A DNA stretch of 40,615 nucleotides from Trueperaceae bacterium (GTDB lineage Bacteria > Deinococcota > Deinococci > Deinococcales > Trueperaceae), in NCBI GenBank assembly GCA_040905465.1, contig JBBDRK010000056.1:53253-93867 (forward strand), in the 5' to 3' direction. A program made the position numbers and the translations under genes. The notes beneath the pieces were generated by a model. The model did no database searches and was not told where the DNA came from. It saw only the letters and a list, made by a program, of their open reading frames with translations. Below, in pieces: positions 16,719 through 35,163 of this stretch (position 1 is the stretch's first letter; each line of letters starts with the position of its first letter).

Positions 16719-17017
16719 GTTGGATTGTCCCAGACGCGACGTCTGCTAAGCTCCGCCTTCTCGGTAAACGTCTTCTCGAGGTCGATATCGAGCAAGTTCG
16801 CGAAATCGCACAGGTTCCGCACAGGTCGTAGATCTCGTGGCCGGCGTTGCGGTGCGCCTCCGCGTGGTCGTCGTTCTTCCACTGGAGCCTGAGAAGCTCC
16901 CTGCTGAGCTCGTCCACCTCCGAAACGAGACAGCGAAACCGCTGATAGGGATTGCGGTCCTTGAAGGTGCTTCGCGCATAGCTCTCTTGCGTTTTGCTGG
17001 ATCTCTGCGATCGTCGT
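16715..17017 (-). pseudogene. MazG-like NTP pyrophosphohydrolase pseudogene (two frameshifts, no start)
   Basis: Three frames join to TIAEIQQNARELCAKH / FKDRNPYQRFRCLVSEVDELSRELL...AGHEIYDL / NLCDFANLLDIDLEKTFTEKAELSRRRVWDNPT*; MazG-like ExxE...ExxD and ANxxxIDL pattern. Confidence 0.7.
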
Positions 17018-17109
17018 ACGCCAGCCTACCCAGTGGTCTCAGGGGCTCGAGGAAACCTGCTCCTGGGCGCAAGGCGCTACTGGAATGGCAACTGGTACTC
17101 CGCCCACGC

Positions 17110-17115
17110 TATACT
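17110..17115 (+). promoter_or_regulatory. -10 TATACT, leaderless promoter
   Basis: 7 nt upstream of ATG 17123; no SD. Confidence 0.6.
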
Positions 17116-17122
17116 CGCGCCG

Positions 17123-17485
17123 ATGAACCTGTTGCTCCGTTTAGCGCTCAACGCCGTGGCCCTCTGGGTGACAGCCGAACTGGCGCTGGGAATCAGCTTC
17201 TCTCGCTCCGGTCTCGGGCCGATCCTGCTGACCGCCCTGGTTCTCGGCCTCGTGAACACCATCGTGCGGCCGGTGATGATAATCCTGACCCTGCCGCTCA
17301 CTGTCGCCACCATGGGACTGTTCCTGCTGGTTGTCAACGGCATAGCCCTGTGGCTGGTGGCCACCATCACGCCACTCCAGGTTCACGGATTCGGCGGCGC
17401 CATCCTCGGCGCCCTGGTGCTCACCGTGATCAGCTGGGCCCTTGCCCGACTCTCGGGCGGTCGAAGCAAACGGCTCTGGGTTTAG
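17123..17485 (+). CDS. YvlD-like 4-TM membrane protein (phage holin family 4)
   Basis: ALVLGLVNTIVRPVMIILTLPLTVATMGLFLLVVNG...GFGGAILGALV. Confidence 0.9.
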   Translation: MNLLLRLALNAVALWVTAELALGISFSRSGLGPILLTALVLGLVNTIVRPVMIILTLPLTVATMGLFLLVVNGIALWLVATITPLQVHGFGGAILGALVLTVISWALARLSGGRSKRLWV

Positions 17486-17562
17486 CCGAGTTTTCGACTC
17501 GCCGGCGGTACTTCCAGTGGTGCAGGCGCGGGGGCAAGGCTTCGAAGTTAGCCGCCGGCAAT

Positions 17563-18159
17563 TCAGCCGCGCGGGAGGTACTTTTCCCAGATCGGATCGA
17601 TGTTCGGCAACAGGCCGTAGGCGGCGGAGAAGATGAAGCGCGGCGCCACCGGCTTGCGGTTGAGGTTCATCTTCGCCTCGTCCGGAGTACGGTCGCGCTT
17701 CTTGGCATTGCACTTCCGGCAACAGGCGACCACGTTGACCCAACTGGTCGGGCCGCCACGGCTGCGGGGCAGTACGTGATCCAGCGTCAGATCGTTCGAG
17801 TGGATGCCGCAGTACTGGCAGGCGTGGTCGTCCCGTCGGAAGACGTTCTTGCGGTTGAACGCGACTCTCTGACGGTGCGGCCTGCGAATGTAACGGCGCA
17901 GCCGGATGACGCTGGGAACCGGAAAGACGCTGGTGGGCGCACGCAGTACCTGGCCGCCGTCCTCGACCCGTTCCGCCGCATCATGCATGAGCAGCGAAAC
18001 CGCTCGCTTTACCGAACAGACGTGCAGCGGTTCGTATGAAGCATTGAGGATGAGCACCCGCGCCGCGTTGAGGTTGCGGATCGGCTGACCGACCGCGCCG
18101 GCCGGCGGGGTGGGCGTTATCCTGTTTTCCAGTTCCTTGCTGGCGGCGTCGACCTCCAA
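17563..18159 (-). CDS. HNH endonuclease (McrA-like, widespread housekeeping type)
   Basis: VLILNASYEPL, PSVIRL, RDDHACQYCG, LTLDHVLPRSRGG...NVVACCRKCNAKK; TATAAT at 18174-18179 (minus strand). Confidence 0.9.
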   Translation of the reverse strand: MEVDAASKELENRITPTPPAGAVGQPIRNLNAARVLILNASYEPLHVCSVKRAVSLLMHDAAERVEDGGQVLRAPTSVFPVPSVIRLRRYIRRPHRQRVAFNRKNVFRRDDHACQYCGIHSNDLTLDHVLPRSRGGPTSWVNVVACCRKCNAKKRDRTPDEAKMNLNRKPVAPRFIFSAAYGLLPNIDPIWEKYLPRG

Positions 18160-21145: not shown

Positions 21146-23386
21146 TCAGTCGTGGCTCAGGCCGACGCGGTCGGCCAGCCGTGCCATCGGCCGTGGCAGC
21201 CACCAGTTCCAGCGGCCCGCCAGGAACATCATGGCGGGCACCAGCGCCAGACGCACCAGGGTGGCGTCGAGCAGCACCGCCAGCGCCAGCCCCAATCCAA
21301 GCGTCTTTATGAGCACGACTTCGGAGAAGATGAAACTGGAGAACACCACCAGCATTACCGCGGCCGCCGAGGTGATCACCCCGCCGGTCGCGCTGATAGC
21401 GGCCACCACGGCGTCGCGGTCCGAAAGCCCCTGGCGGTGCGCTTCGTAGATTCGGGCGACCAGGAACACCTCGTAATCCATCGACAACCCGAACACGATC
21501 GCGAAGATGAACAGCGGGGCGCTGGAGTCCACGTATCCCAGGCCACCCGGCACCCCGAACAGCCCCGCCAACCAGCCTTCCTGGAAGATCAGCGTGATCA
21601 CGCCGTAGGCGGTCGCCACCGTGAGAGTGTTGAGGAGAATCGACTTCAGGGGAATCAGCAGCGAGCGAAACGCCAGGCCCAACACCACGAGAATTCCCAG
21701 GTAGACCAGTGCCACCGCGTACGGGAACGACTTGTAGAGCAGCCTGGTCCACTCTGCTTCGAAGATGGTGGCTCCACCGACCAGCGCCTTCACTCCCACC
21801 TGATCGATCGCCTCGCTCACGCTGGCACGCAAAGCAGCAACCTGATGGGGAGCCAGATTGCCGAGCGGAAACACGCTGACCAGGGCGTAGCGGCCGCCCT
21901 CACTGACGGTAGTGGTCACCAGGTCTCTCAGTTCGCTGTTGAGGGCAACCTGCGGCGTGGCGTAGTACTGGTAGAGCATCAGCGTCGGCAGGTTTTCCAC
22001 CGCCATCGCCGAGTTGACGGCGCCCACCTCCGGGATCTCCTGCAGCAGGCGGCCAAGCCGGGACACACGCCGCTGACTCGACGGATTGTAGAAGCCGCCG
22101 TCACCGAAGTCGACCAGTATCTCGATCGGCTTCAGCAACCCCTCGAGCCCTACACCCTCCAGGGCCGCCACGACCTTGCGGGCGTCGGTAGCCGGGCTCA
22201 GTCCGCGCGCGCCGGGATCGGCAACCTGCATGCTCAGTGCCGGGATGCTCAGGACTACCAGCGCCCCTGCACCGGCCAGCGCCCAGGCCCACGGGTGGCG
22301 CAAGATTAGCAGCGCTCGCCGTCGCCAGAAGGAACGGCTGCGCAGGCCGGGTTCGCGGCGCGTGATCCTGACCGCGTTCACTCGGTGTCCCAGCAGTGCC
22401 AGCAGCGCCGGCAGCGCCGTGGTGCTCACCAGGATGCTGAGCCCCAGCACCACTATCGTGCCTACGCCCAACGAACGGATGAACGCCAGCGGCGGAACCA
22501 GCAGCGCCGACAGGGCGATCAGTACCGTGACTCCGCTGAAGGTGACGGCCTTGCCGGAAGTCCGGGCGGTAAGTTCGGCGGCCGCTTTCGGAGCGTGTCC
22601 GTTGCGCAGTTCTTCCCGGAAACGGTTCACCATCAGCAGGGCGTAATCTATGCCGGTCGCGAGGCCGAGCATCGTCACGATGCTCTGGGTGAAAACGGCG
22701 AACTGCATGAACTGGCCGAGGCCGTATAACGCCGCGAACGAGAGCGTTATCGACACCAGCGCCACCAGCAGCGGCAGGCCAGAAGCCACCAGCGCGCCGA
22801 AGGCGAACACCAGGACCACCAGCGACAGCGGCAGTCCGTAGAGCTCAGCGCGGCGAGTGTCCCGCTCGCTTATCTCCTCGAGCTCCCTCACCGAGGCCGG
22901 ACCACCGGCCAGGCTGAACGACAGGCTCGGCTCCTGTTCCACAGCGGTCCGTATGGCCTCGCTCGTTTCCTGCGCCTCGATCGCGGTATCGGCGCGAATG
23001 CCGACCAGAGACAGCAGGTAGCGTCCGTCGTCGCCCACCAGCTGCAGCCCACGTGAACGCCGATAGTCACGAACCCCGGTGACACCCGGGATGCCTTCCA
23101 CGGCAGCGACGGCTCGAAGGTAGGCCCGATCGAAGGCCGGTTCGCCCAAACGGGAATCGCTGCTTCGGCTAAGCAGGATCACGCTGTAGTCGTTGCTCTG
23201 CCGGAAGTCGTCGGCGAGGATTCGCCGCACCTGTTCGGGGACGCTCGACTCGGGTACGTTCGGTTGCGCGGTCAGGACTTCGCCGACTCGGGCCGCGAAT
23301 GGTACCGACGCCAGCACCACGACCACCCAGACTGCCAATACCAGACGGGGACGATGGCTGACGAGTTTGGCAAGTCGTGAAGGCAT
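21146..23386 (-). CDS. MMPL (RND superfamily) transporter
   Basis: MLGLATGIDYALLMVNRFREE, FGLSMDYEVFLVARIYE, DATLVRLALVPA...GRWNWWLP; alternative TTG start at 23404. Confidence 0.95.
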   Translation of the reverse strand: MPSRLAKLVSHRPRLVLAVWVVVVLASVPFAARVGEVLTAQPNVPESSVPEQVRRILADDFRQSNDYSVILLSRSSDSRLGEPAFDRAYLRAVAAVEGIPGVTGVRDYRRSRGLQLVGDDGRYLLSLVGIRADTAIEAQETSEAIRTAVEQEPSLSFSLAGGPASVRELEEISERDTRRAELYGLPLSLVVLVFAFGALVASGLPLLVALVSITLSFAALYGLGQFMQFAVFTQSIVTMLGLATGIDYALLMVNRFREELRNGHAPKAAAELTARTSGKAVTFSGVTVLIALSALLVPPLAFIRSLGVGTIVVLGLSILVSTTALPALLALLGHRVNAVRITRREPGLRSRSFWRRRALLILRHPWAWALAGAGALVVLSIPALSMQVADPGARGLSPATDARKVVAALEGVGLEGLLKPIEILVDFGDGGFYNPSSQRRVSRLGRLLQEIPEVGAVNSAMAVENLPTLMLYQYYATPQVALNSELRDLVTTTVSEGGRYALVSVFPLGNLAPHQVAALRASVSEAIDQVGVKALVGGATIFEAEWTRLLYKSFPYAVALVYLGILVVLGLAFRSLLIPLKSILLNTLTVATAYGVITLIFQEGWLAGLFGVPGGLGYVDSSAPLFIFAIVFGLSMDYEVFLVARIYEAHRQGLSDRDAVVAAISATGGVITSAAAVMLVVFSSFIFSEVVLIKTLGLGLALAVLLDATLVRLALVPAMMFLAGRWNWWLPRPMARLADRVGLSHD

Positions 23387-23431
23387 TTCCCGCCAGCTTA
23401 CCAACAGGCTCTGAGGGAGAGTGAGGGCGGG

Positions 23432-24172
23432 TTAGACGCCCACGAAGGTCTCGATCACCGACCGAGCGTGGGGATCGCGGGTGCCCACCGCTCCGGAGAG
23501 CCGGCCGTCTCGCAGGAACAAGATAGTATCGGCGTTCAGGGCGGCCTTCGGGTCGTGGGTGACCATCACTACCGTCCAGCCTCGGTCATCGACGCCGGCG
23601 CGCAGCAGGTTCAGAACCTCCTGGCCGGTCTCGCTGTCGAGGTTGCCGGTGGGTTCGTCGGCCAGGACGACGACCGGGTCGTTGATCAGGGCCCGGGCAA
23701 GTGAGACTCGCTGGCGCTGACCACCCGAGAGCTGCTTGGGCCGGTGGCCCAGCCGATCGGCGATGCCCAGGGCGTCTGCCAGTTCCCGCAACCGTGCCTC
23801 CCCGGCCGAGCGTCGGCCCGCCACTTCCGCCGGCAGCAGTATGTTCTCGCGCGCGTCGAGGTTCGGTATCAGCTCGAACGTCTGGAAGACGAAACCCAGC
23901 CGCTCGCGGCGCAGCCTGGTGAGTTCGTCGTCATCGAGCCCCTTGGTGGCTACGCCGCCGACGTAGACCTCGCCCTCGTCGGGCACGTCCAGAAGGCCGA
24001 GCAGATGCAGCAGCGTGCTCTTGCCGCTCCCGGACGGTCCCATCACGCTCACGAACGAGCCGGGCTCCACCGCCATGTCTATGCCGGAGAGCGCGGTTAT
24101 GGTCTGCTCGCCGAGTCGATAGGTCTTGCCGAGGCGTCGCGCCTCGATGGCGTAACGATTTTCTGATTCCAT
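23432..24172 (-). CDS. ABC transporter ATP-binding protein (LolD/MacB type)
   Basis: GPSGSGKST, LSGGQRQRV, LADEPTGNLD, VTHD. Confidence 0.96.
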   Translation of the reverse strand: MESENRYAIEARRLGKTYRLGEQTITALSGIDMAVEPGSFVSVMGPSGSGKSTLLHLLGLLDVPDEGEVYVGGVATKGLDDDELTRLRRERLGFVFQTFELIPNLDARENILLPAEVAGRRSAGEARLRELADALGIADRLGHRPKQLSGGQRQRVSLARALINDPVVVLADEPTGNLDSETGQEVLNLLRAGVDDRGWTVVMVTHDPKAALNADTILFLRDGRLSGAVGTRDPHARSVIETFVGV

Positions 24173-24175
24173 TTG

Positions 24176-26740
24176 TTACTCCGAAGCGCCCAGCGCCAGG
24201 ATCGGCGGCAGCCGGGATGCCCGGCGGGCAGGGAAGTACGAGGCCAGCAGCCCCACCAGGGGAGATGCCACGAGCGCTGCGACGATTATGAGCCACGGAT
24301 AGCGTGGAGTGATGGCGAAACCTGTTATGGCGGCGGCGCCGGCAGTGATCACGTGGGCCAGCAGCAGCCCTGAGGCGATTCCCAGTATCGTTCCCACCAG
24401 CAGAACCACCAGGCCCTCGGCGATCACCACCCTGCCGACTCCCGCGCGGGTCAGACCGAAGGTGCGCAGGACGGCGAGCTCGTGCTTTCGGTTCGAGAGG
24501 TTCATGCCGAGCGTGTTGGCGACTCCCAGAGCGGCGATGAAGATCGCCAGTGCCAGCAGCGCGTTGGTGGTAACGAACGAACGCCGGGTGAGCGCCATTA
24601 TCGCTTCGCGGTACTCCCGGTTGAGGGTGACGTCGAGGTAGAGCCCGGGAAACGCCTCCAGCAGGCGGTCGCGTGCCAGGGCGACGTCGGCGTCCGGATC
24701 GACCGTCATGACGTACAGGTCCGGGGTTCCGCCGCCGAACAGCTCCAAGTCTTCGATCGACGCTATCACCGCCTCGCCACCGCCGGTAAAGTCCACGATC
24801 ACGCCACCCACCTCGAATTCGCGAAAGCCCTCGTCGGTGCGCAACTCGACCCGGTCGCCCTGTCCGAGATCGAAGCGGTCGCGCAAGGTGTTGGCGATCA
24901 GCACCTCACCGCCGGCGGTCAGTGAGCGGTAGCCCTCCTCGTCGTTGCCGTGTCCGGGGATGTACTGAAAACGCCCGAACCCTGAGTCCGGCGCGAAACG
25001 GGCGGGGTCGACCAACACCAGGGCGATGCTGCGAGCCCGGGCATCGCCGGCCGGCTGAAAACGGACGATCCGGATGCCTACCCCCGATACCGCGTCGACG
25101 CCGGGCACGACCTCGGGGACCGCTGTCTCGAAGTCGGCGGGGAAGCTCACCGGTGAGGTGACGAAGAGGTCGCCCACGATGGTCGTATCTACCCAGTCCG
25201 CGATGGCCTGATTGATGCCGGCCACCATTGCGCCAACACCGATGGTGAGTCCCATCCCGACGACCACGGAACCGATTGCTACGCCGTTTCGCGCAGCGTT
25301 GCGGCGCGCGAACGACGCGCCCAGCCGGCCGGCAGGCCCCATCGTCCTCGTCAGCACCGGTCCGAGCAAAAGCACCGCCGGCGCGAGCAGCGTGGGCGTG
25401 GCAAGGGTGAATCCCAGGAAGAGCAGAGCCATCGCAATGCCTGCCGCGGCCAACGCCCAGGCCCCGCTCCAGGGCAGCAACGCCATGGTTACGCCGGCAG
25501 CGACAGCCAGCCAACCCGCCAGGCTCCGCAGCCAACTGCCGTCCGTGTCCTCCGCTTGGCGCAACGCCGCCAACGGCGGCGTTGATGACGCCGTCCGGGC
25601 CGGCAGGGACCCGGCCAGCAGCGCAACCAGCACGCCCACGCCGGCCGCCGGGAGCACGCTTTCGAGTGGCAGCACCAGTGTCCGGAACTCGATGCCGAGA
25701 CTGTAGGCGTTGATTCGGGTGATGGTGTAGGCCAGTACGATGCCCAGCAGGAGGCCGGCCACGACGCCGAGCACGCTCACTATCGCCGCCTCTAGGAGAG
25801 CCAGCCGCCGCACCTGCTGCTTGGTCAGGCACAGCGTTCGCAGGAGCGCGTACTCGCGACGCCTCTCCACCACGGCGGCCATGAAGGTGTTGTAGGCCAT
25901 GAAACCGCCGAGGGCCAGCAGCGTGGCTGCCAGGATGCTCAGCCCCGACTGGATGGTGTCGACTATGCCGGTTGCGATATTGCCGCTCGCGGCAGGGAAG
26001 GTAACGGTGTACTCGTCTCCCAGCCGGTCGCCCAACCGCGTTCGTGCCGCGCTCGCGTCGGCAGCGTCGTCCAGGTGCAACTCGAGGAAGCTGGCGCGTC
26101 CCTCGAGGTGAAGCACCGACTGCAGGTCCGCGAGCGCCATGACGGCCACCCTTCCACCGTTGGTCGAGGCGTAACCGTATGAGTCGTCGAGCAAGCCTGT
26201 CACGCGGAGCTCGAAGCTGCCCAGCTGCCCGGCGAAGCCCACTGTCTGCCCGACCTCGATTCCGCGCTGGGCGGCGAAGTTCTCGGCGATCGCCACTCCC
26301 TGGCTGCCCGCTTGGGGAAGCGATCCAGTGGCCGTCCTCACCGGCAGGTCGACACCCGCGCTGGTGATGCGGCCGGATATCTGGAAGCCGGTGTCGAGGC
26401 CCGGGATCACCGAACGGTCGATGTCCAGGCGATCTCGAATCGGCTCGGCTCGGGTGTTGAGGACCGGGTAAGTCCGCTCCACGACCGGGTCGCTTTCCAG
26501 CTCGTCGCTCACCTGTGCGTAGGCGAATACCGCCCGCCCCTCCACGCCGGGGGTCACCAGCAGGTCGGCGGTGCCGGCCGCGGCGGCCAGGGTGCTGGCA
26601 ACGTTGGCCTCGACGTTGTCACCCACCGACAAGGTCGCCAGAACGGCAGCGATTCCGATCGCCACCCCCAGAACGGTCGCCGCGGTACGCCAGGCGTGAC
26701 GAAGTAGATTGCGCAGCGCCAGCCGCACCAGCATCGGCAT
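24176..26740 (-). CDS. ABC transporter permease with duplicated MacB_PCD/FtsX domains
   Basis: LALRNLLRHAWRTAATVLGVAIG, NTFMAAVVERRREYALLR, NTLGMN...ELAVLRTFG, PARRASRLPP. Confidence 0.92.
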   Translation of the reverse strand: MPMLVRLALRNLLRHAWRTAATVLGVAIGIAAVLATLSVGDNVEANVASTLAAAAGTADLLVTPGVEGRAVFAYAQVSDELESDPVVERTYPVLNTRAEPIRDRLDIDRSVIPGLDTGFQISGRITSAGVDLPVRTATGSLPQAGSQGVAIAENFAAQRGIEVGQTVGFAGQLGSFELRVTGLLDDSYGYASTNGGRVAVMALADLQSVLHLEGRASFLELHLDDAADASAARTRLGDRLGDEYTVTFPAASGNIATGIVDTIQSGLSILAATLLALGGFMAYNTFMAAVVERRREYALLRTLCLTKQQVRRLALLEAAIVSVLGVVAGLLLGIVLAYTITRINAYSLGIEFRTLVLPLESVLPAAGVGVLVALLAGSLPARTASSTPPLAALRQAEDTDGSWLRSLAGWLAVAAGVTMALLPWSGAWALAAAGIAMALLFLGFTLATPTLLAPAVLLLGPVLTRTMGPAGRLGASFARRNAARNGVAIGSVVVGMGLTIGVGAMVAGINQAIADWVDTTIVGDLFVTSPVSFPADFETAVPEVVPGVDAVSGVGIRIVRFQPAGDARARSIALVLVDPARFAPDSGFGRFQYIPGHGNDEEGYRSLTAGGEVLIANTLRDRFDLGQGDRVELRTDEGFREFEVGGVIVDFTGGGEAVIASIEDLELFGGGTPDLYVMTVDPDADVALARDRLLEAFPGLYLDVTLNREYREAIMALTRRSFVTTNALLALAIFIAALGVANTLGMNLSNRKHELAVLRTFGLTRAGVGRVVIAEGLVVLLVGTILGIASGLLLAHVITAGAAAITGFAITPRYPWLIIVAALVASPLVGLLASYFPARRASRLPPILALGASE

Positions 26741-26747
26741 CGGTTCC

Positions 26748-26753
26748 AGTGTA
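26748..26753 (-). promoter_or_regulatory. -10 TACACT, leaderless internal promoter for the ABC-MMPL module
   Basis: 7 nt upstream of ATG 26740. Confidence 0.55.
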
Positions 26754-26771
26754 GCCGAGCGGCCCTCGGTG

Positions 26772-27776
26772 CTAGTCGTTTTCCCTCACGGCAGCCGGGT
26801 TGCGGCCCGTCGCCAGTGCCAGGCCCCCTATGAGAGGACCGACCAGGAAGTAGATGTAGTGCTGGTATAGCCGCCACAGGATTACGGCCGCGGCGAGCGA
26901 TCGCCCGCCTACATGACCCTTGAGGGCGTAGGTTATGGCCGCCTCCTGGTAGCCGCTTGCGCCGGGTGTGGGGACCACGAAGGCAAACGCGTGCAGGACC
27001 ACCTGTGCCGCGTATACCACCAGGTGTTCGGCGCTCACCAGCAACCCCACCAGGACCAGGTTCAGCACCGCGAAGTAGGGGAGGCGGGCGCCGCTCGAGA
27101 GCAGGTGGAAGCGCACGTGCCAGTGCCACGGCCGCCGGGAGTACCGCTCCCCGGCCAGTGCCAGGTCGCGCAGGAACGGGTCGATCCTGCCGTGGAAGCG
27201 TTGCAGGAGCGGAAGAGCGGAAAGTCGTCGAAGCAGGCTGATCGCCATCGGAAGGCGGAACACCAACAGATAGCTGACCACCAGCGCCAGTGCCGACAGC
27301 AAGGCGACCAGCAGACCGAACTGCTCCAGGGGCACGGTTATGCGGGCCAGGCGCAGCGCCAGGTAGCCCGTCGGCGCCGCCCAACCGAAGAAGGCCAGGT
27401 CGCCGACCAGGCACATCACGGCAACCGACACGGCGCGGTCGGTGGGGAGCCCGAAGCGGTTGAGGAGGAATACGATCCCGATCGAGTTGCCGCCGCCGGC
27501 CGGCGTCGCCACCGCGCTGAACGTCCCGAGCACGTGGGTCTGGATGCCTTGCCAGAGACTCGTCGGATGACTCGTACCGCGCGTGAGAAAGACGATCCGC
27601 CAACCGGACAGCAGCCACCACAGCAGCATCGGCACCGCGATGCCGGCCAGCGACAGGGCGTCGAGGCGACGAATCACGCCGAGTGCGTCGGCGGCCAGGC
27701 CGTCCGGTGCCACCAGGTAGATGCTGGTGACCCCCAGCACGAGTGATACTACGAACGCAACGAGCAGGCGGGTCAC
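26772..27776 (-). CDS. Lysylphosphatidylglycerol-synthase TM / UPF0104 flippase-like membrane protein
   Basis: GWRIVFL, TFSAVATPAGGG, VPTPGASGYQE, ILWRLYQHY; GTG overlaps the upstream TGA. Confidence 0.85.
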   Translation of the reverse strand: MTRLLVAFVVSLVLGVTSIYLVAPDGLAADALGVIRRLDALSLAGIAVPMLLWWLLSGWRIVFLTRGTSHPTSLWQGIQTHVLGTFSAVATPAGGGNSIGIVFLLNRFGLPTDRAVSVAVMCLVGDLAFFGWAAPTGYLALRLARITVPLEQFGLLVALLSALALVVSYLLVFRLPMAISLLRRLSALPLLQRFHGRIDPFLRDLALAGERYSRRPWHWHVRFHLLSSGARLPYFAVLNLVLVGLLVSAEHLVVYAAQVVLHAFAFVVPTPGASGYQEAAITYALKGHVGGRSLAAAVILWRLYQHYIYFLVGPLIGGLALATGRNPAAVREND

Positions 27777-28990
27777 TTGGCTCCGGTCAACGGTTCGAGG
27801 CCGGGGCCGCAGGCGTCTTCCGCCGGCTGCCCTGTTCGAGCGTAGTGACCGAGGTAGCGTCCCAGCCGGGCCGCCATTCCCGGGAAGTCCAGGCGGACGG
27901 CGGCGAGGCGCACTCGCTCCAGCCGATCGGGGTCGCTCCGGTAGTTGCACACCTCGCGCCGCAGTTCGGCCGGCGTCAGTACCAGCCGTCCCAGTCCGTG
28001 TCGCTCGAGCAGCCCGATCATCTTGTTCTCCGCGGTGCCGAATCGCATCGGAGCAAGCAGCGGCCGGCCCACCGCGAGGGTCTCGTACACGGTTGCCGGG
28101 CCGCTTTTTCCGATCACGACATCACAGGCCGCCACGTAATCGGCCAACTCCTCCACGAAGCCGAGTACACGCAGATTGGGGAGGCGCTCCTCGAATCCGG
28201 CCAGGCGCCGGCGTAACGCCTCGTTGCGGCCCGTCACGACCACAACCTGAGTCGTCGGGTCGTCGCTCAGTGCTTCCAGCACCGCCTCCGGTGTCCCCCC
28301 GACCCCCTCTCCTCCCAAGGTCACCAGGCAGGTAAAGGCCTCGTCCAGTGCCAGGCGCCGCCTTGCCTCGGTCTTGCCGGGTGCGCACAGGAACTGCTGC
28401 CGAACCGGATAGCCGACCACGTCGATACGTGATCCCGGAACGCCGAAGCGCATCAGTCTGCGCCTGGAGACCGGCGACGCCACCACGAACCGCTCGGCCA
28501 GCGGTTCCGCCCACAGCGCGTTGGCGTTCAGAGTCGAGGTTTCGAAGGTGAGGACCGGGGCTTCCAGGCCGAACTGCCGCTGCGCGAGTGTCATGGCCAC
28601 CGTAAGCCAGCCGTGGTTTACGACCACCAGCGCCGGGCGGGTCTCGTTGAGCTCCTGAGCCGCCCGCTCCGCGAAGTCGTGCAGCAGGCGCCGGTGGAAC
28701 GCCGCCGTCGCGGCAGGCAGGGCGTCGATCAGCCGCTGGCCCCAGACTATGGTCCAGGGGTGGCGCAACGCGCGCCGCCATCCCTCTTTATGACGCCGGT
28801 CGAGCTCATCGAAGCCGAAGTCGACCATCGGCTCCGTCACCCTAGTGTCGAAGGTTACCGGGTAGGCCTGCTCGAGCGCCTGACTCATCGCCTCGGCCGT
28901 GCTGACGTGCGACCCTCCGGCCGCTATCGTGGCAAAGAGTACCGAGCCCTGACGGGCAGTGGTCGGCAACGGCGAGAAGTCGATTTCCAT
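27773..28990 (-). CDS. GT28 MGDG-synthase/UgtP-like glycosyltransferase (paralog 2)
   Basis: ATIAAGGSHVSTA, GYPVR, VVTGRN, LGFVEELADYVAACDVVIGKSGPATVYE. Confidence 0.9.
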   Translation of the reverse strand: MEIDFSPLPTTARQGSVLFATIAAGGSHVSTAEAMSQALEQAYPVTFDTRVTEPMVDFGFDELDRRHKEGWRRALRHPWTIVWGQRLIDALPAATAAFHRRLLHDFAERAAQELNETRPALVVVNHGWLTVAMTLAQRQFGLEAPVLTFETSTLNANALWAEPLAERFVVASPVSRRRLMRFGVPGSRIDVVGYPVRQQFLCAPGKTEARRRLALDEAFTCLVTLGGEGVGGTPEAVLEALSDDPTTQVVVVTGRNEALRRRLAGFEERLPNLRVLGFVEELADYVAACDVVIGKSGPATVYETLAVGRPLLAPMRFGTAENKMIGLLERHGLGRLVLTPAELRREVCNYRSDPDRLERVRLAAVRLDFPGMAARLGRYLGHYARTGQPAEDACGPGLEPLTGAK

Positions 28991-29021
28991 GGGCGATTCG
29001 ACCGCCTCAGTCTAGCCTGAT

Positions 29022-30191
29022 TCAGTGCAGGCCCTCGGTGATGAAACTTCGTTCGGGTCTGCCGCCTCGCGCGTAACTGGCGATGTAGCGTGCCAGTCGC
29101 TCGCTCATGCCCGGAAGGTCGAGTCCAGCGGCGGCGGTGGCCACCTGCTCGAGTCGGTCCGGGTCGCGGCGGTACCGGTCGACCTCCTGCCTTATGGCCT
29201 CCGGCGAGCGCACCAGCGCCCCGAGACGCCGCCGGACCAGGAAGCGTACGACCTCCAGTTCGTTCAGCCCGGCATATCCGGTAGCGATGAACGGTCGGCC
29301 GACCGCCAGCGTCTCGAAGACCGATGCCGGCCCGGCCTTTCCGACCACCACATCGGCGGCGGCCAGGAAAGTAGCCACCCGATCGGTGAATGCCTCGAGG
29401 CGCAGACTCGCCCAACGCTCGGCCAACGGGGCGAGACTGCGCCGGAGAACGGGGTTTCGCCCGGTCAGCACGACCAGCTGAAGGCCATCCTCGAGGAGGC
29501 CCCTTACCCAGGGGCGGGGGTCTTCGCCGACAGCCTCCCCGCCGAGCGAGACCAGGCAGTGAAAACCCGCGCCCAGGCCAAGCTCACTCCGGGCCCACTC
29601 CTTGGTTGGAGCATGGAGGAAGTCGTCCCGCACCGGATAGCCGATGACATCGACCTTTTCAGGTCGTACGCCCAGCCGCACCAGATCCGATTTGGCGGCG
29701 GCCGATGGAACTACGAACTGCTCGGCCGCGGGTTCGGCCCATAGCGCGCTGGCGTCGAGCGGCTCGGTGGCGAACGAGAGGACCGGCGTTCTCAGCGCGT
29801 GCCGTTGCTGTGCCCTGGTAAGCCCGACGGTGAGCCAACCGTGGTTCGCCACTATCAGGTCGACCGGCCTGGCTCGCAGCTCGTCGGCGGCAGCACGGGA
29901 GAAACGGCGCAGCATGAGGCGGTGGTAGCGCCGTGTCAGGGTAGGAGCCGCGTCGAGAATCCTCTGCCCGGTGCGAACGAGCTGCGGGCGGGCCAGCGCC
30001 CAGCGCCACAGCTCCTTGTGCTGTCGGTCTTCGCGAAGCAGCCCGAGGTCGAACATGAAGTCCGATACTCGTGTCTCGAACTCGCCCGGCAGATGCCGGG
30101 CGAGAGCCTCCGCCATGGCAAGCGCGGTCGCGACGTGGCCTCCACCGGCTGCGATGGTGGCGAACAGGACTCGTCTCGGCGCCGGCGTCAC
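29022..30191 (-). CDS. GT28 MGDG-synthase/UgtP-like glycosyltransferase (paralog 1)
   Basis: ATIAAGGGHVATA, GYPVR, VLTGRN, AADVVVGKAGPASVFE. Confidence 0.9.
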   Translation of the reverse strand: MTPAPRRVLFATIAAGGGHVATALAMAEALARHLPGEFETRVSDFMFDLGLLREDRQHKELWRWALARPQLVRTGQRILDAAPTLTRRYHRLMLRRFSRAAADELRARPVDLIVANHGWLTVGLTRAQQRHALRTPVLSFATEPLDASALWAEPAAEQFVVPSAAAKSDLVRLGVRPEKVDVIGYPVRDDFLHAPTKEWARSELGLGAGFHCLVSLGGEAVGEDPRPWVRGLLEDGLQLVVLTGRNPVLRRSLAPLAERWASLRLEAFTDRVATFLAAADVVVGKAGPASVFETLAVGRPFIATGYAGLNELEVVRFLVRRRLGALVRSPEAIRQEVDRYRRDPDRLEQVATAAAGLDLPGMSERLARYIASYARGGRPERSFITEGLH

Positions 30192-31198
30192 GATACTCGG
30201 GCCTCCCCATCGGGCCGCAGGAGCGGGTCCTGGGACACGGTGACCGCCATTCCGGCACGCCAGGAGAGCTCGGGCCGGTAGCCGAGATGGCGTTCCGCTG
30301 CGATGAGCGAAAAGTGCACGTCGCGCAGCATGAGCGTCGCCCGGTAACGTGTGAGAGGCGGTTCAGCTTTCGGGGCGAATGTTCGCCATAACGCCTCCAC
30401 GCCGGTGGCCACGGGTAGCACCAGCTCCCCGGGTAGGCGTAATCGCGGGGGCCGGGCGCCGATCAGCCGGGCGAACTCGGCCAGCGCTTCACGCCAGGTA
30501 GGTGCTCCGTCGTCGGCGATCACAAACACCCTGCCACCTTGTTTCGGTGTGACGGCGGCCAGTTCCAGACCCAGCGTCAGATTGCCCACGTAGGCGGTAT
30601 TCAGCACCCGGCCACCGTCTCCCAGCAACGGCAGCCGCCCACCCTTCAAGGCGGCTGCAACACGGCGCGTCTGGGGATCTCGCGGCCCGAACGGCCAAAG
30701 CCCGGGCCTGACCACCACGCCCTCACCGGGCCAGGCAAGGACCAGGTCCTCGGCGGCGATCTTCGACCGAGCGTACGGCATCGTCCCGTTGTCGCGCGGT
30801 AGCCTCTCGGGATCGGCGTTGCGAAAACCGCGGAACCTGTGAACGGCAACGCTCGAGACCAGCACGAAACGGCGGGTGCCGGATGCCGTTGCCGCGTCGA
30901 GCAAGTTGCGGGTGCCGCCGGCATTGGTTTCCATGAGCGGTTGCGGAGGTCCCCAGTCTGCAAGCCGGGCTGCCGAGTGAATCACCGCGTCTACGTCGTC
31001 GCAGATGCCCCGCAGGCTTTCGGGATCGGTAATGTCGGCCCTGACTATCTCGGCGTTCGGGTGCGTCTGGACCGTCCGCAGGTTGCCGATCACCCCCCAC
31101 GGGCTCACCAGTGCGCGAACCGCGTGGCCGCCCGCAAGCAGCCGCTCGCAAAGGTGACTGCCGATGAATCCGTGAGCGCCGCTGACCAGGATCCTCAT
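30188..31198 (-). CDS. Extended SDR, NAD(P)-dependent epimerase/3-beta-HSD-like; candidate 3-keto-sphingoid/ceramide reductase
   Basis: SGAHGFIG, VSS, YARSK (YxxxK), FGPRD; role inferred from context. Confidence 0.85.
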   Translation of the reverse strand: MRILVSGAHGFIGSHLCERLLAGGHAVRALVSPWGVIGNLRTVQTHPNAEIVRADITDPESLRGICDDVDAVIHSAARLADWGPPQPLMETNAGGTRNLLDAATASGTRRFVLVSSVAVHRFRGFRNADPERLPRDNGTMPYARSKIAAEDLVLAWPGEGVVVRPGLWPFGPRDPQTRRVAAALKGGRLPLLGDGGRVLNTAYVGNLTLGLELAAVTPKQGGRVFVIADDGAPTWREALAEFARLIGARPPRLRLPGELVLPVATGVEALWRTFAPKAEPPLTRYRATLMLRDVHFSLIAAERHLGYRPELSWRAGMAVTVSQDPLLRPDGEARVS

Positions 31199-31908
31199 GT
31201 TCGAACCAGGATGAACAGGTCGGTCACCAGACCGAGCGCCAGGTGAATGGCCACGACGTAGTACAACGAACGGGTTCGCAGGGCAACCAGACCGAAAAGA
31301 AGTCCGGCCGGGAACGCCGCCACGGTTTCCACCAGCGGTTTCCCCAGGTGCAGCAAGGTGGAAGCCAACGTCTGAATCCAGAGCGCCCCGTAGCGCCCGA
31401 ACGTCGGCTGCAGTCCACGGAGGAGGAACCCCCGGAAGAAGAACTCGTACGACAGGTAGTAGAGCGAGTAGATGACCGCCCAGGAGGCGAACGCCAGGAT
31501 GCCGCTACCTGCCCAGGCGCCGGGCCACGGGTAGGCGAGTCGGATCGCTGGGTCGCCCGAGGCGAACCAGCCGAGGGGAATCACCAGCAGCAAGCCCAGC
31601 AACAGCGCCTGCCGTCCCGCCGCCGGGTCCCCTCGGCGCAGGCCCAGGCGCTTCGGTAGCAGGCCGAGCGGTCGCGCCAGCAGGAGTGGCAACAGGCCGA
31701 GCAACAGCACGGCCCACAGGACCGAACGCAGGGCGTGCGCAGGGTCGCGCGGCGTCGCCGGACCGGGCGCCCCGAAGTACCAGTAGGCGATCTGCAGCAG
31801 CAAGGCCACTGCCAGCAAGGCGGAGCCGCTGCTCTTCGGCGGGAACATCCCGGCCAGATCCGTCGCCAGTCCGGTGAGAAGTCCCGGTGCCCGTGACTCT
31901 TGCCTCAC
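31195..31908 (-). CDS. CPBP (CAAX/Abi) intramembrane glutamic endopeptidase-like protein
   Basis: YEFFFRGFL, TLLHLGKP...E, AIHLALG; GTG overlaps the upstream TGA. Confidence 0.85.
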   Translation of the reverse strand: MRQESRAPGLLTGLATDLAGMFPPKSSGSALLAVALLLQIAYWYFGAPGPATPRDPAHALRSVLWAVLLLGLLPLLLARPLGLLPKRLGLRRGDPAAGRQALLLGLLLVIPLGWFASGDPAIRLAYPWPGAWAGSGILAFASWAVIYSLYYLSYEFFFRGFLLRGLQPTFGRYGALWIQTLASTLLHLGKPLVETVAAFPAGLLFGLVALRTRSLYYVVAIHLALGLVTDLFILVRT

Positions 31909-33014
31909 ATCGTCTTCTGATATAGCCGGTAGGTCTTGTAGAGCCGCCCGCCCGACGCCTCGATGCCACGAATCATTGCGTTGTTGGTCTCCAGTACCCA
32001 GGAACACTCGCCTTGCCGCAGGCCGCGCCTGGCACCGCGTTTGGCGATCTCGTCTATTAGCACCAGCTCCAGCCCGCGATTCCGGTACTCCGGCATGACG
32101 CCGAGAATAGGCAATCGGGCACGGTCTATCAGCCGGTTGCGGTTCAGCAGTTTCAGGATACCGAACGGCAGCAGGCGCCCGCGAAGTCCCAAGAGCACCT
32201 GGTTCACGTCTGGAACGGCGATGGCTATCGCCGCAATGTCCCCATCGATTTCGAGGAAGAGCGCCAGCTCCGGATCGAGGATCAGTTTCAATTCGTCGAC
32301 CAGATGATCGAACTCGGCATCTGTGTACTTCACGAAACCCCAGTTCCGCTCCCACGCCTCGTTGTACACCCGTTTTAGAATTCCCGCCTCCCGCTGCAGA
32401 CGCTTCATGTTTACCGGCCTGACCTCCAGCCGCTCGCGGCGCCTGACACGGTCGGCGAGCCGGCTGAGACGCTCGCTCGGACCCTGTTCGACGTTGAAGT
32501 GCCAGGCGTAGAGGTCCATGGCCTTGCCGTAGCCGGCCGATTCGACGAACGCAGGATATTCGGACGGATTCTGCGGCATCATCAGGTACGGCACCGTGTC
32601 GAAGGCGTCGATCTGAAAACCGGAGCCGTCGTTCATCGAAGGATTGGCGGGACCCCTGACGACATCCCGACCCAGTTGCCTGGCGCGCCCCTCCACCGTC
32701 GCCAGCAGTTCGTTGGCGACAGTCTGGTCCTCGGCTTCGAAGAATCCGAAGAACAGGAGGTTGTCGCCGTGGGTTCGGTTGTGGTTGTCGTCATCTATCG
32801 CCGCGATCCTGCCAACGAGTCGGCCCTCCCGGTAGGCGAGATAAAGGTCGATACGTGCGTGATGGAAAAACGGGTTGCGCTTGGGATCGAACTTCTCCCA
32901 CTCCGAAATCAGGAGGGGCGGGACCCACAGCGGGTCGGCCCGGTACTTCCGGTATGGATACTCGATGAAGCGGCGCAGATCACGCCGGCCGGTTACGTTC
33001 TCGATCCGAATCAT
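31905..33014 (-). CDS. GNAT N-acyltransferase, bacterial ceramide synthase (bCerS)/YghO-like
   Basis: FIEYPYRKYRADPLWVPPL...KRNPFF...GRIAAI...FFGFFE...GPANPS...YNEAWERNWGF...PDVNQ...GVMPEYRNRG...SWVLETN...YKTYRLY; immediately downstream of spt. Confidence 0.82.
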   Translation of the reverse strand: MIRIENVTGRRDLRRFIEYPYRKYRADPLWVPPLLISEWEKFDPKRNPFFHHARIDLYLAYREGRLVGRIAAIDDDNHNRTHGDNLLFFGFFEAEDQTVANELLATVEGRARQLGRDVVRGPANPSMNDGSGFQIDAFDTVPYLMMPQNPSEYPAFVESAGYGKAMDLYAWHFNVEQGPSERLSRLADRVRRRERLEVRPVNMKRLQREAGILKRVYNEAWERNWGFVKYTDAEFDHLVDELKLILDPELALFLEIDGDIAAIAIAVPDVNQVLLGLRGRLLPFGILKLLNRNRLIDRARLPILGVMPEYRNRGLELVLIDEIAKRGARRGLRQGECSWVLETNNAMIRGIEASGGRLYKTYRLYQKTM

Positions 33015-33052
33015 GCCGTCGGTCGTAACCGCAGGGATGGGAAACTGAGCAT
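33011..33052 (-). CDS. 13-aa uORF (MLSFPSLRLRPTA) translationally coupled to the bCerS-like gene
   Basis: SD GAGGAG (33060-33065) 7 nt before ATG; its TGA overlaps the bCerS ATG (ATGA). Confidence 0.5.
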   Translation of the reverse strand: MLSFPSLRLRPTA

Positions 33053-33109
33053 GGGGGCTCTCCTCGCACTCTCCGGCAGGGCGGCGCAGTTGTCACCCCG
33101 CCAGGAGGC

Positions 33110-34384
33110 CTAGCCGATTATGTCGAAGCGCCTTCCCACCACCTCGAAGGCGGCGAGCAGCGCATCGAGCTGCTCTATCGTGTGATTAGCGTTTACGCTC
33201 GTGCGAATTATCGCCTGACCGCTCGGTACCCCCGGCGGGAGCGCGGGCGTGGTGAAGATCCCTTCCTCCCACAGCCCTTTCCAGAAGAGCATGGTCAGGT
33301 CGTCGGGCCCAATGAGGACCGGCACGATGGGGGTCTCGGAACCGAGTGTGTCGAATCCCAGCGAGCGCAGTCCGCCGTGAAGACGTTCGACGTTGCGCCA
33401 CAACTTTATGCGGTGTTCGGGCTCATTCTCGATGATCTCGAGAGCCTTCAGAGCGGCAGCCATCTGCATCGCCGGCAGTGCAGCGGTAAAGATGAACGGG
33501 CGCGCCTTGTGCTTGACGTAGTTGACCACCTGACGAGGGCCCGCCAGGAAGCCGCCCACCGAGCCGAACGACTTAGAGAACGTTCCGACTATCAGGTCGA
33601 TCTGATCGTCGAGACCAAAATACTCCGCGCTGCCGCGACCGCTCGCGCCGAGGACTCCGGTGGCGTGGGCGTCGTCGACGATTACCCGGGCGCCGAAACG
33701 GCGCGCGATCTTCACGATTTCCGGCAGGCGAGCAACGTGCCCGCTCATCGAAAAGACCCCGTCGGTGACGATCAGCCGGCCCCCGGGCCGATCGCTGTCT
33801 TTGGCCAAAAGCCGTTCGAGGTGCGCCAGATCGTTGTGCTCGTACTTGCGCAGGGTTCCGAACGCAAGCCGGGCACCGTCGTAGAGGCACGCATGGTTCT
33901 CACGGTCGAAATAGAGGATGTCGTGTCGCCCGGTGAGCGCGCTGATGACCGAAAGGCAGCCCAGGTAACCGGCGCTGAACGTCAAAGCGGCTTCCTTGCG
34001 AAGGAATGAAGCCAGCCGTTCTTCGAGCAGTTCGTGGAGCGTAAGCGTTCCGGTAAGGAATCTCGAGCCGGTGCAACTGGTGCCGAAGTCGTCGAGCGCG
34101 TTCCTGGCCGCCTCTTTCAAGCGCTGATCCTGAGTGAGACCCAGGTAGTCGTTGGAACCGGTGATGACCATGTCCCTGCCGTTGACCGTGACGGTGCCGC
34201 CGTGCTGCCTCGCTATCGGCTTGAAATACGGGTGCATCCCCGCTGCGACCGCCTCGTCCGCCCGAGTGAAGGCGAATGCCTTGTCGAACACGTCGGTCAC
34301 CCGGCTGGACGGAGAGTCGAGCACCCCGGTGCTGCTCTCGAGACGATTCTGGTGCTTCTGAGTGGGGTTGGATTGTTCGGACAA
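33110..34384 (-). CDS. spt: Serine palmitoyltransferase-like alpha-oxoamine synthase
   Basis: HPYFKPI, GSNDYLGLT, GTSCTGSRFLTGTL, DRENHAC, DGVFSMSG, DDAH, PLP-lysine motif GTFSKSFG; SD GGAGG before TTG. Confidence 0.83.
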   Translation of the reverse strand: MSEQSNPTQKHQNRLESSTGVLDSPSSRVTDVFDKAFAFTRADEAVAAGMHPYFKPIARQHGGTVTVNGRDMVITGSNDYLGLTQDQRLKEAARNALDDFGTSCTGSRFLTGTLTLHELLEERLASFLRKEAALTFSAGYLGCLSVISALTGRHDILYFDRENHACLYDGARLAFGTLRKYEHNDLAHLERLLAKDSDRPGGRLIVTDGVFSMSGHVARLPEIVKIARRFGARVIVDDAHATGVLGASGRGSAEYFGLDDQIDLIVGTFSKSFGSVGGFLAGPRQVVNYVKHKARPFIFTAALPAMQMAAALKALEIIENEPEHRIKLWRNVERLHGGLRSLGFDTLGSETPIVPVLIGPDDLTMLFWKGLWEEGIFTTPALPPGVPSGQAIIRTSVNANHTIEQLDALLAAFEVVGRRFDIIG

Positions 34385-34605: not shown

Positions 34606-35163
34606 GTGAGCACTCAACGTGATGGGGGTGAGGGCGCCCAGCTGACGTCGCTTGGCGCGGCCACGCGTCCCGCCGACGTACGTGACGCCCCCCTGGTACA
34701 TGCCATCTACCTGGAGACTCCGGGTTACTTCGACATCATTTCGATACCGGTTCCCACTTTGGCCGAGGTCGAGACCGAGTTACAGACGGCCGGCCGCGAC
34801 GCGCGGCGCCAGGTCGAACTCGTGTTCGCGCCGGCCGATCTGCCGCTCGCCGGCTGGCACCTCCGTGACCCGCATCAGGGGCGGCCGGTAGTCGGCTACC
34901 TGGACTACAAACTGGACTATCCGGAGGCCGGCGACGCCACCGTCAATCTTATGCTGGTACATGGTGGCCTTCAGAGCAAGGGCGTCGGTAAGTCGTGCGC
35001 AGCCGATCTGGAGGTTCGGCTGAGGCAAAGGGGTACGGTCCGGCGGGTACTGGCCAGCATTTATGGGCAGAATCCGCGCGCGGAACGGTTCTGGCGATCG
35101 CTGGGCTACAGATTCGCCATCGACGCCAAGCCGATTCTGGACTGGTACGCCAAGGAGCTCTGA
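34606..35163 (+). CDS. GNAT family acetyltransferase
   Basis: VNLMLVHGGLQSKGVGK...NPRAERFWRSLGY. Confidence 0.85.
   Translation: MSTQRDGGEGAQLTSLGAATRPADVRDAPLVHAIYLETPGYFDIISIPVPTLAEVETELQTAGRDARRQVELVFAPADLPLAGWHLRDPHQGRPVVGYLDYKLDYPEAGDATVNLMLVHGGLQSKGVGKSCAADLEVRLRQRGTVRRVLASIYGQNPRAERFWRSLGYRFAIDAKPILDWYAKEL

Follow-up and report, generated by a model that had tools for sequence, protein, structure and literature searches.

The main finding of this work was the identification, in a bacterium of the family Trueperaceae (Deinococcota), of a gene locus that encodes, with a probability that we put at about 0.68, a bacterial ceramide (dihydroceramide-type) pathway of the Caulobacter and Sphingomonas kind in a lineage-specific form. 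The stretch of DNA analysed, hereafter the window, comprises 40,615 bp (G000:C56:53253-93867; GC ~0.66) of a genome that is 95% complete, and the locus occupies positions 21146-34384 of its minus strand. This reading is carried by an Spt-like alpha-oxoamine synthase (AOS) that falls in the clade of the serine palmitoyltransferases (SPT), by an adjoining GNAT of the bacterial ceramide synthase (bCerS) family, and by the co-conservation of both genes within the phylum. The Trueperaceae lineage probably makes sphingolipids.

In the pathway that we propose, the Spt-like enzyme would join an acyl thioester to serine (or to a closely similar amino acid) in a condensation that yields a 3-keto long-chain base, which the tandem-GNAT bCerS may then N-acylate, and the 3-keto group would be reduced by the extended short-chain dehydrogenase/reductase (SDR) encoded in the locus, a role suggested by its position and co-variation. 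One or two GT28/UgtP-like glycosyltransferases (GTs) would probably add hexose to the ceramide, translocation of the lipid over the inner membrane may fall to the MprF-type flippase-like protein, and its further passage outward to the MMPL transporter; the FtsX/ABC pair was most likely already present at the site and has a different or a wider function. The initial annotation had described a complete glycosphingolipid locus, a wording that is not justified, since there is no dedicated acyl carrier protein (ACP) or acyl-ACP synthetase and the acceptor of the GTs is not told by their sequence. The ten open reading frames (ORFs) of the locus, with the domains called by Pfam and NCBIfam profile searches of their proteins, are as follows.

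33110..34384, minus strand: Spt-like AOS, 424 aa; Aminotran_1_2, 200 bits
31905..33014, minus strand: bCerS-type tandem-GNAT N-acyltransferase, 369 aa, YghO/CC_1154 family; weak Acetyltransf_1, 24 bits
31195..31908 (long ORF 31195-32355), minus strand: CPBP (Rce1-like) intramembrane protein, ~217-237 aa; Pfam Rce1-like, 46 bits
30188..31198, minus strand: extended SDR, 336 aa, candidate 3-keto reductase; Epimerase/3Beta_HSD/NAD_binding_10
29022..30191, minus strand: GT28-like lipid glycosyltransferase a (GTa), 389 aa; Glyco_tran_28_C, 31.8 bits, and MGDG_synth
27773..28990, minus strand: GT28-like lipid glycosyltransferase b (GTb), 405 aa; Glyco_tran_28_C, 38.1 bits, and MGDG_synth
26772..27776 (long ORF 26772-27950), minus strand: LPG_synthase_TM flippase-like membrane protein, ~334 aa; PF03706, 63 bits
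24176..26740, minus strand: duplicated MacB/FtsX-type ABC permease, 854 aa; two MacB_PCD and two FtsX domains
23432..24172, minus strand: LolD/MacB-like ABC ATPase, 246 aa, paired with the FtsX permease; ABC_tran, 106 bits
21146..23404, minus strand: MMPL-family RND transporter, 752 aa; PF03176, 274.8 bits in two stretches

Candidates for serine palmitoyltransferase and ceramide synthase

The AOS phylogeny was inferred by a quick search from 80 rows chosen by GNAT adjacency, with support given as Shimodaira-Hasegawa-like approximate likelihood ratios (SH-aLRT) and no bootstraps; three duplicates, four rows with internal stops and the HemA, CqsA and CapB references were left out. The AOS of a Sphingomonas parapaucimobilis replicon, which matches the crystallised SPT (PDB 2jg2) with 907 bits, served as the SPT reference, together with the SPT of the E. 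coli yghO cluster and the BioF and Kbl of E. coli K-12. A set of 67 GNAT-adjacent enzymes formed one clade (SH-aLRT 98), which includes the window protein and the SPTs of Sphingomonas and of the E. coli yghO cluster. E. coli Kbl and BioF fall outside it, as do five AOS of Deinococcaceae/Thermaceae and four paralogues that do not adjoin a GNAT gene, from genomes of Myxococcota, Cytophagia and others. The Spt-like assignment proposed earlier, and the placement against Spt, BioF and Kbl suggested for checking it, are borne out by this tree, in which the enzyme groups with a characterised SPT and with neither BioF nor Kbl; by sequence, the window AOS is a member of the SPT clade.

The active-site residues are consistent with this placement. 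K271 of the window AOS aligns with the pyridoxal 5'-phosphate lysine of the Sphingomonas enzyme, and conservation extends to H164, D237, H240 and R394 (reference SPT numbered as in the literature). The motif GTFSKS is common to the window AOS and the SPTs, and the residue preceding the lysine is Gly in Kbl and BioF. The best PDB matches were the Sphingobacterium SPT (365 bits), a Thermus BioF/Kbl (292 bits) and the Sphingomonas SPT (271 bits), followed by cysteate-C-fatty acyltransferase (258 bits), Kbl (~240 bits) and BioF (~200 bits). The gene begins with a TTG start that has GGAGG ahead of it.

The 369-aa GNAT belongs, by full-length homology, to the YghO/CC_1154 ceramide N-acyltransferase family. 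It is 35% identical to E. coli YghO over 100% of the query length (tblastn against PLSDB) and 32% identical to the protein annotated as 'N-acetyltransferase' in the Sphingomonas spt cluster (E 1e-66, 369 of 383 aa), and the link to the bCerS family runs through these two homologues rather than through a direct comparison with the Caulobacter sequence. CC_1154 is the Caulobacter bCerS, CCNA_01212. A figure legend in previous work places CC_1154 and yghO (ECD_02850) together, as aca, among the genes needed for dihydroceramide synthesis (PMC9386255, Fig. 9). The family of ~370-aa GNATs is very large (1214 clusters at 50% identity, E<=1e-30), and contains natural fusions of AOS and GNAT (P0197/P0219, 780 aa and a 648-aa fragment) as well as of GNAT with an AMP-binding acyl-activating enzyme (P0199, 940 aa). 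The AlphaFold model of the window protein (mean predicted local distance difference test score 93.4) folds as a tandem GNAT and, among solved structures, is closest to MshD-like and glucosamine N-acetyltransferase-like proteins; no solved bCerS structure was found among the structural matches. The description of this gene as bCerS-like thus stands, given its full-length homology, its coupling to Spt and the fusions with AOS. As side observations, the family includes a tandem double GNAT of 784 aa (P0121), and a strong homologue (E ~1e-30 to 1e-170) occurs in 301 of 301 sampled genomes of the class of the L110 metagenome-assembled genome (MAG), which carries the label Hyphomicrobiales (G301).

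The distribution of both genes was surveyed in 301 sampled genomes of the phylum, with tallies that include one unpublished genome (G251). The GNAT is present in 87 of the 102 Trueperaceae genomes (family f1 in the survey) and in all 10 genomes of a sister family (f5), and was found in none of the genomes of three other families (0/112, 0/62 and 0/14). Spt orthologues at E<=1e-120 occur in 80/102 Trueperaceae and 9/10 sister-family genomes and in 0/188 genomes of the other families of the phylum. Each listed Spt-positive genome has the GNAT too, and among the surveyed genomes the co-occurrence of Spt and GNAT is confined to these two families. Seven Trueperaceae genomes have a GNAT alone, five of them holding just a divergent paralogue with 32-37% identity (four of genus g17, and G223) and the other two being 91% (G268) and 80% (G295) complete; the single such genome of the sister family (G259) is 82% complete.

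Gene order agrees with these tallies. Twenty related stretches of 17 kb were scored for orthologues of the locus genes, and Spt adjoins the GNAT in 16 of them, the remaining four having an Spt orthologue (57-72% identity) elsewhere in the genome; the SDR orthologue was found in 13/20, at least one GT in 12/20 and the MMPL gene in 10/20. Among 80 loci from ~20 named other phyla, an AOS of the Spt clade adjoins the GNAT in 53. Adjacency at this frequency in both sets indicates that the Spt-GNAT arrangement is not due to chance, and the co-conservation postulated in the initial annotation is supported by the family tallies and by the related loci.

Three observations were made on the GNAT paralogues and a degraded copy. 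A divergent paralogue (25-38% identity) occurs in some Trueperaceae genomes, with second copies in G249, G279 and G185; the genomes of genus g17 (G183, G235, G246 and G267) have the divergent paralogue and no Spt orthologue; and the GNAT orthologue of G202 (C8:2890-3981) is probably a pseudogene, since it contains 10 in-frame stops (6 TGA, 1 TAG and 3 TAA), the intact Spt of that genome lying on a different contig.

Reductase, head-group and transport candidates

The SDR gene overlaps the CPBP and GTa genes by 4 nt each, and its product matches best the NCBIfam model OleD (140 bits) and then HpnA, both far under the cut-offs. When the genome was searched with a CerR-like query of Sphingomonas, the first match was an SDR of contig C72 (E 2e-14) and the window SDR came second (E 2e-7); the C72 gene is flanked by genes for a GFO/IDH/MocA oxidoreductase and a GT1 enzyme, which is a sugar context. 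At the loci of other phyla, extended SDRs were found in 40/80 by tblastn with the window SDR (coverage of at least 50%) and in 51/80 when CerR-type references were added as queries, and for all 51 some SDR query from Sphingomonas, E. coli or Rubrobacter outscored the window SDR. A CerR-type profile was then made from 45 cluster SDRs, long and strong enough, and three references; it gave 185.4 bits to the C72 SDR and 178.6 bits to the window SDR, and because it did not separate the two a tree was needed. In this tree the 14 SDRs of Trueperaceae loci form a clade of their own (SH-aLRT 98), which a 95-supported split parts from the CerR-type group and seven same-genome paralogues. The reductase role given to this gene in the initial annotation does not hold in the sense of CerR orthology, in view of these matches, the query scores and the separate clade. 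The SDR is, however, found as an orthologue with 48-64% identity in the related loci mentioned above, and no orthologue-level SDR was detected in the five Spt/GNAT-negative Trueperaceae genomes, each at least 95% complete, that were used for the phyletic tests of accessory genes (best match 40% identity, in G139). It thus co-varies with Spt and GNAT, and its position and co-variation make it a non-orthologous, that is analogous, candidate for the 3-keto reductase. The CPBP gene sits between the GNAT and SDR genes in 14 of the 20 related loci and was seen at none of the 80 loci of other phyla.

Both GTs exceed the Pfam cut-off of 22 for Glyco_tran_28_C, and their N-terminal MGDG_synth domains score slightly below the cut-off of 25 (21 and 24.4 bits for GTa and GTb, respectively). 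Against the diglucosyl-diacylglycerol synthase model they reach 63.6 (GTa) and 97 bits (GTb), with a cut-off of 500. Of the earlier proposal that two sugars are added, the presence of two GT genes stands for the window and for a locus of the same genus (L033); as a general feature it does not, since 11 of the 12 related loci with a GT have a single one.

For the transport steps, the flippase-like protein scores above the cut-off of TIGR00374 (54.9 bits; cut-off 43.2), and the MMPL protein has two MMPL domains above cut-off. The latter is not an MmpL3 orthologue, since it reaches 286 bits of the 1400 required by the MmpL3 model. No MMPL orthologue was found in the five negative genomes (0/5), the lone match being a fragment with 35% identity in one of them, so that this gene co-varies with Spt and GNAT; MMPL is a candidate lipid exporter, with export and flipping being roles that the domain families and the gene context suggest. 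The FtsX permease behaves differently: orthologues with 40-61% identity are present in 5/5 negative genomes, and all four negative neighbourhoods that were read show the order LEA, ABC, FtsX, further genes, small GNAT and EF-P, with the sphingolipid genes missing. In the window, the FtsX/ABC genes are flanked by the Spt-to-flippase block on one side and by MMPL on the other. Their retention at this chromosomal site when Spt and GNAT are missing indicates that they are residents of the site, and it speaks against a dedicated part in the system; their membership in the ceramide system is doubtful.

The ten ORFs are co-oriented, overlapping or closely spaced, and lie where the initial annotation had placed them, with ORF, Pfam and NCBIfam calls that agree with the domains it gave. 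Their GC content at third codon positions (0.77-0.83) is of coding type. With corrected starts the intergenic distances are only -4 to 95 nt, with 4-nt start/stop overlaps at four junctions, a packing that is operon-like; a promoter and terminator scan gave no signal above shuffles bearing on operon structure. Two starts were revised. The long CPBP ORF shares 450 nt with the GNAT gene in a different reading frame, its first 150 residues being an out-of-frame read of that gene; the start is probably GTG 31908 (237 aa; preferred) or ATG 31848 (217 aa). For the flippase gene the likely start is GTG 27776 (334 aa), which gives a 4-nt overlap with the stop of the upstream glycosyltransferase gene.

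Both flanks hold unrelated plus-strand genes: on the upstream side those of a small GNAT, EF-P and AccB/AccC, and on the downstream side that of a LEA_2 protein. One ORF of 82 aa (34780-35028, minus strand), which lies upstream of Spt, was considered as an ACP and rejected, as it has no Pfam match and overlaps a plus-strand GNAT gene. Elsewhere in the window (16994-18159), a Phage_holin_4_2 membrane protein (plus strand) stands beside an HNH endonuclease (minus strand) amid housekeeping genes. The label 'Deinococcota-like' is apt, because the closest named homologues of the GNAT come from Trueperaceae MAGs.

Points against the ceramide reading and alternative explanations

Several observations weigh against the ceramide reading. 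The AOS missed the cut-offs of all three Spt equivalogs (NF047600, NF047599 and NF047603, with 431/640, 382/500 and 300/670 bits, respectively), its best NCBIfam model being SerpalmtaseCFB (431 bits, cut-off 640), although these cut-offs are lineage-narrow, since the Caulobacter control itself fails NF047603. In plain identity the window AOS is closer to a Thermaceae AOS of the BioF/Kbl side (44%) than to the Sphingomonas SPT (37%), and it is the sole AOS of the genome, which makes a Kbl-type side role possible. The locus contains no gene for an ACP or an acyl-ACP synthetase, for which proteobacterial clusters have dedicated ones, and none of its ten proteins matches the LptF/LptG family. The window SDR lies outside the CerR clade and scores no higher than the sugar-context SDR with the CerR-type profile. 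The sugars may go onto diacylglycerol, since the characterised members of the matched GT28 family are diacylglycerol glycosyltransferases, and the FtsX/ABC genes do not co-vary with Spt and GNAT. In addition, at the same chromosomal site of another genome (L141, G139:C11, 11949-13897), SDR-like (40%) and GT28-like (38%) genes stand beside FtsX/ABC and Spt and GNAT are missing; this pair may be a remnant or a separate glycolipid module, and hints at an SDR-GT module able to work on another lipid. Descriptions of polar lipids in Deinococcota name glycolipids, phosphoglycolipids and diol lipids. The sole description that we found for Truepera gives a mixture, not characterised further, of phospholipids and glycolipids, possibly with 1,2-diols (PMC3072082).

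One alternative explanation is that two independent modules share one operon, Spt-GNAT, perhaps with the SDR, making a ceramide-type lipid and the GT28, flippase, FtsX/ABC and MMPL genes making and exporting a glycosyl-diacylglycerol or another envelope glycolipid, with no action on ceramide. We regard it as unlikely, though worth keeping in mind. It draws on the GT matches to diacylglycerol glycosyltransferase and monogalactosyldiacylglycerol synthase models, on the retention of FtsX/ABC where Spt and GNAT are missing, on the rarity of a homologous GT beside Spt-GNAT in other phyla (1/80 loci) and, as its best evidence, on the SDR-like and GT-like pair of G139. What tells against it is the linkage of the head-group and transport genes to the core, as 12 of the 20 related loci have a GT immediately after the SDR, the GTa and SDR genes of the window overlap by 4 nt, and MMPL is missing from all five Spt/GNAT-negative genomes.

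The substrate of the AOS offers a second alternative, to which we give clearly less weight, namely that the enzyme uses alanine, glycine or cysteate, so that the products would be 1-deoxy-ceramide-like or capnine/sulfonolipid-like N-acyl amino-lipids. The position matching R378 of the Sphingomonas SPT, the residue that binds the serine carboxylate, is Leu in the window AOS, and this substitution, the scores under all Spt equivalog cut-offs and the match to cysteate-C-fatty acyltransferase would fit such a substrate. The SPT structures score higher than that match, however, no cysteate synthase-like gene lies within the locus, and the same Leu occurs in the E. coli yghO-cluster SPT. Previous studies hold points on both sides, since 1-deoxyceramides are attributed to bacteria with 'Spt-like' proteins (PMC11334938) and the BL21 SPT of E. 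coli makes 3-oxo-sphinganine (PMC9386255). Finally, it is very improbable that the AOS is the BioF or Kbl of the organism and lies beside lipid genes incidentally, as its single-copy state in a 95% complete genome and its scores of 379 and 357 bits with the bioF and Kbl models, a little under the Spt scores, are countered by the tree, by the strict co-occurrence with the GNAT, by the different clade of the Deinococcaceae/Thermaceae AOS together with an orthologue in 0/174 of those genomes, and by a genome that encodes a BioY biotin transporter (L135, G000:C72, 9900-10511) but yielded no BioB homologue to tblastn with E. coli BioB, a combination that makes a BioF role unlikely and marks the organism as probably a biotin auxotroph.

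Comparison with known systems and significance

The ceramide reading of the locus is best appreciated against the proteobacterial clusters, whose genes are named spt, acpR, aasR, cerR (= epi) and bcerS (= aca = CC_1154 = yghO). In Sphingomonas, the GNAT gene stands with an NAD(P)H-binding SDR, an ACP, the SPT, LptF/G paralogues and a desaturase, and in E. coli an acyl-AMP ligase, an SDR, an ACP, an AOS and LptF/G paralogues lie beside yghO. The window shares with the Caulobacter, Sphingomonas and E. coli B clusters the AOS clade, the YghO/CC_1154 family, an NAD(P)-dependent extended SDR inside the cluster and lipid-transport genes beside the synthesis genes. Unlike them, it has no dedicated ACP or acyl-ACP synthetase, its SDR comes from a different clade than CerR, and it carries the CPBP insertion and GT28-like head-group enzymes. 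Its transport candidates are also different, an MprF-type flippase and an MMPL/RND protein in place of the LptF2/G2/C2 paralogues of Caulobacter, which are required for sphingolipid transport according to a recent preprint (bioRxiv 10.64898/2026.04.12.717747). In the Caulobacter model, Spt and bCerS are cytoplasmic, CerR is periplasmic and the transporters are unknown (PMC11087976).

The individual head-group and transport candidates have known counterparts. Like UgtP/YpfP and the monogalactosyldiacylglycerol synthases, both GTs combine MGDG_synth and Glyco_tran_28_C domains; they fall far short of the equivalog cut-offs, however, with 64 and 97 against 500 bits, and ceramide is proposed as acceptor from the context. 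In-vitro use of ceramide as acceptor has been reported for an enzyme of the UgtP/YpfP type, which tells against the view of two separate modules. MmpL3 and HpnN, of the same MMPL family as the window gene, are lipid exporters encoded beside the genes that synthesize their cargo; no MMPL is known to us to carry a sphingolipid.

Outside the phylum, the nearest relatives are the Spt-GNAT-SDR clusters of Rubrobacteraceae. The GNAT of Rubrobacter radiotolerans is 61% identical to that of the window and the Spt of a Rubrobacteraceae MAG (L036) 72%, and this Spt forms one clade with those of Trueperaceae (SH-aLRT 100). Unlike the window, the Rubrobacter clusters use a CerR-type SDR, and that of R. 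radiotolerans is followed by a gene of the LTA-synthase family where the window has GT28, flippase and MMPL genes. The R. radiotolerans genes, an AOS, a GNAT, an NAD(P)-oxidoreductase and the LTA-synthase-family gene, lie on plasmid 1 (NZ_CP007515.1, 191 kb; L134, 12707-18299) and would constitute a plasmid-borne ceramide cluster in a cultured actinobacterium. This cluster adjoins CRISPR-Cas genes. The joint Spt clade, the GNAT identity and the plasmid location point to horizontal exchange between Trueperaceae and Rubrobacteraceae. Extending this, we tentatively suggest, as a possibility that goes well beyond the basic reading, that Trueperaceae and their sister family make a hexosyl-ceramide by means of bCerS, a non-orthologous OleD/HpnA-like SDR that takes the place of CerR, GT28, and the flippase with an MMPL/RND pump where other bacteria have LptFG paralogues, with a core exchanged horizontally, possibly on plasmids, with the radiation-tolerant Rubrobacteraceae. 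In that case the MMPL protein would be the first RND-type sphingolipid exporter.

With regard to the envelope of the organism, a lipid A gene cluster was found in the same genome (G000:C4:30774-34360), with an lpxA above cut-off (237.5 bits), an lpxC-like gene below it (163 bits; cut-off 187) and a second LpxA/LpxD-like match; the Deinococcus radiodurans and Thermus thermophilus controls gave no lpxC match. This bacterium may thus make lipopolysaccharide, unlike its better-known relatives. The idea of a sphingolipid that replaces lipopolysaccharide, as in Sphingomonas, was dropped because of the lpxA and lpxC-like genes, and coexistence of the two, as in Caulobacter, is more likely.

As for the literature, the searchable full text yielded no report of sphingolipid synthesis genes in Deinococcota or Trueperaceae, in line with the initial annotation, although supplementary phylum tables may list Deinococcota. 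The rarity it implied was overstated: according to a recent survey, homologues of Spt, bCerS and CerR were known from 9 phyla, and the potential producers rise to 40 phyla with the Spt-like proteins that MAGs of 38 phyla encode; its main text does not name Deinococcota (PMC11334938). The wide spread of bacterial Spt and bCerS being already published, the gain of this work is incremental rather than conceptual. New here are the lineage, a non-orthologous reductase, the CPBP insertion, the GT28 head-group enzymes and a co-varying MMPL transport candidate, which we consider of moderate novelty.

Two relatives in culture, Truepera radiovictrix and Rubrobacter radiotolerans (the latter having the plasmid copy), would make the proposal cheap to test. 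The passage of sphingolipids through the envelope is an open question in the field (PMC11087976; bioRxiv 10.64898/2026.04.12.717747), and, if the reading is true, the reductase and transport steps have been solved in this lineage otherwise than in Caulobacter. Likewise, a ceramide pathway confined to Trueperaceae and their sister family would bring the phylum a further lipid class and a chemotaxonomic marker.

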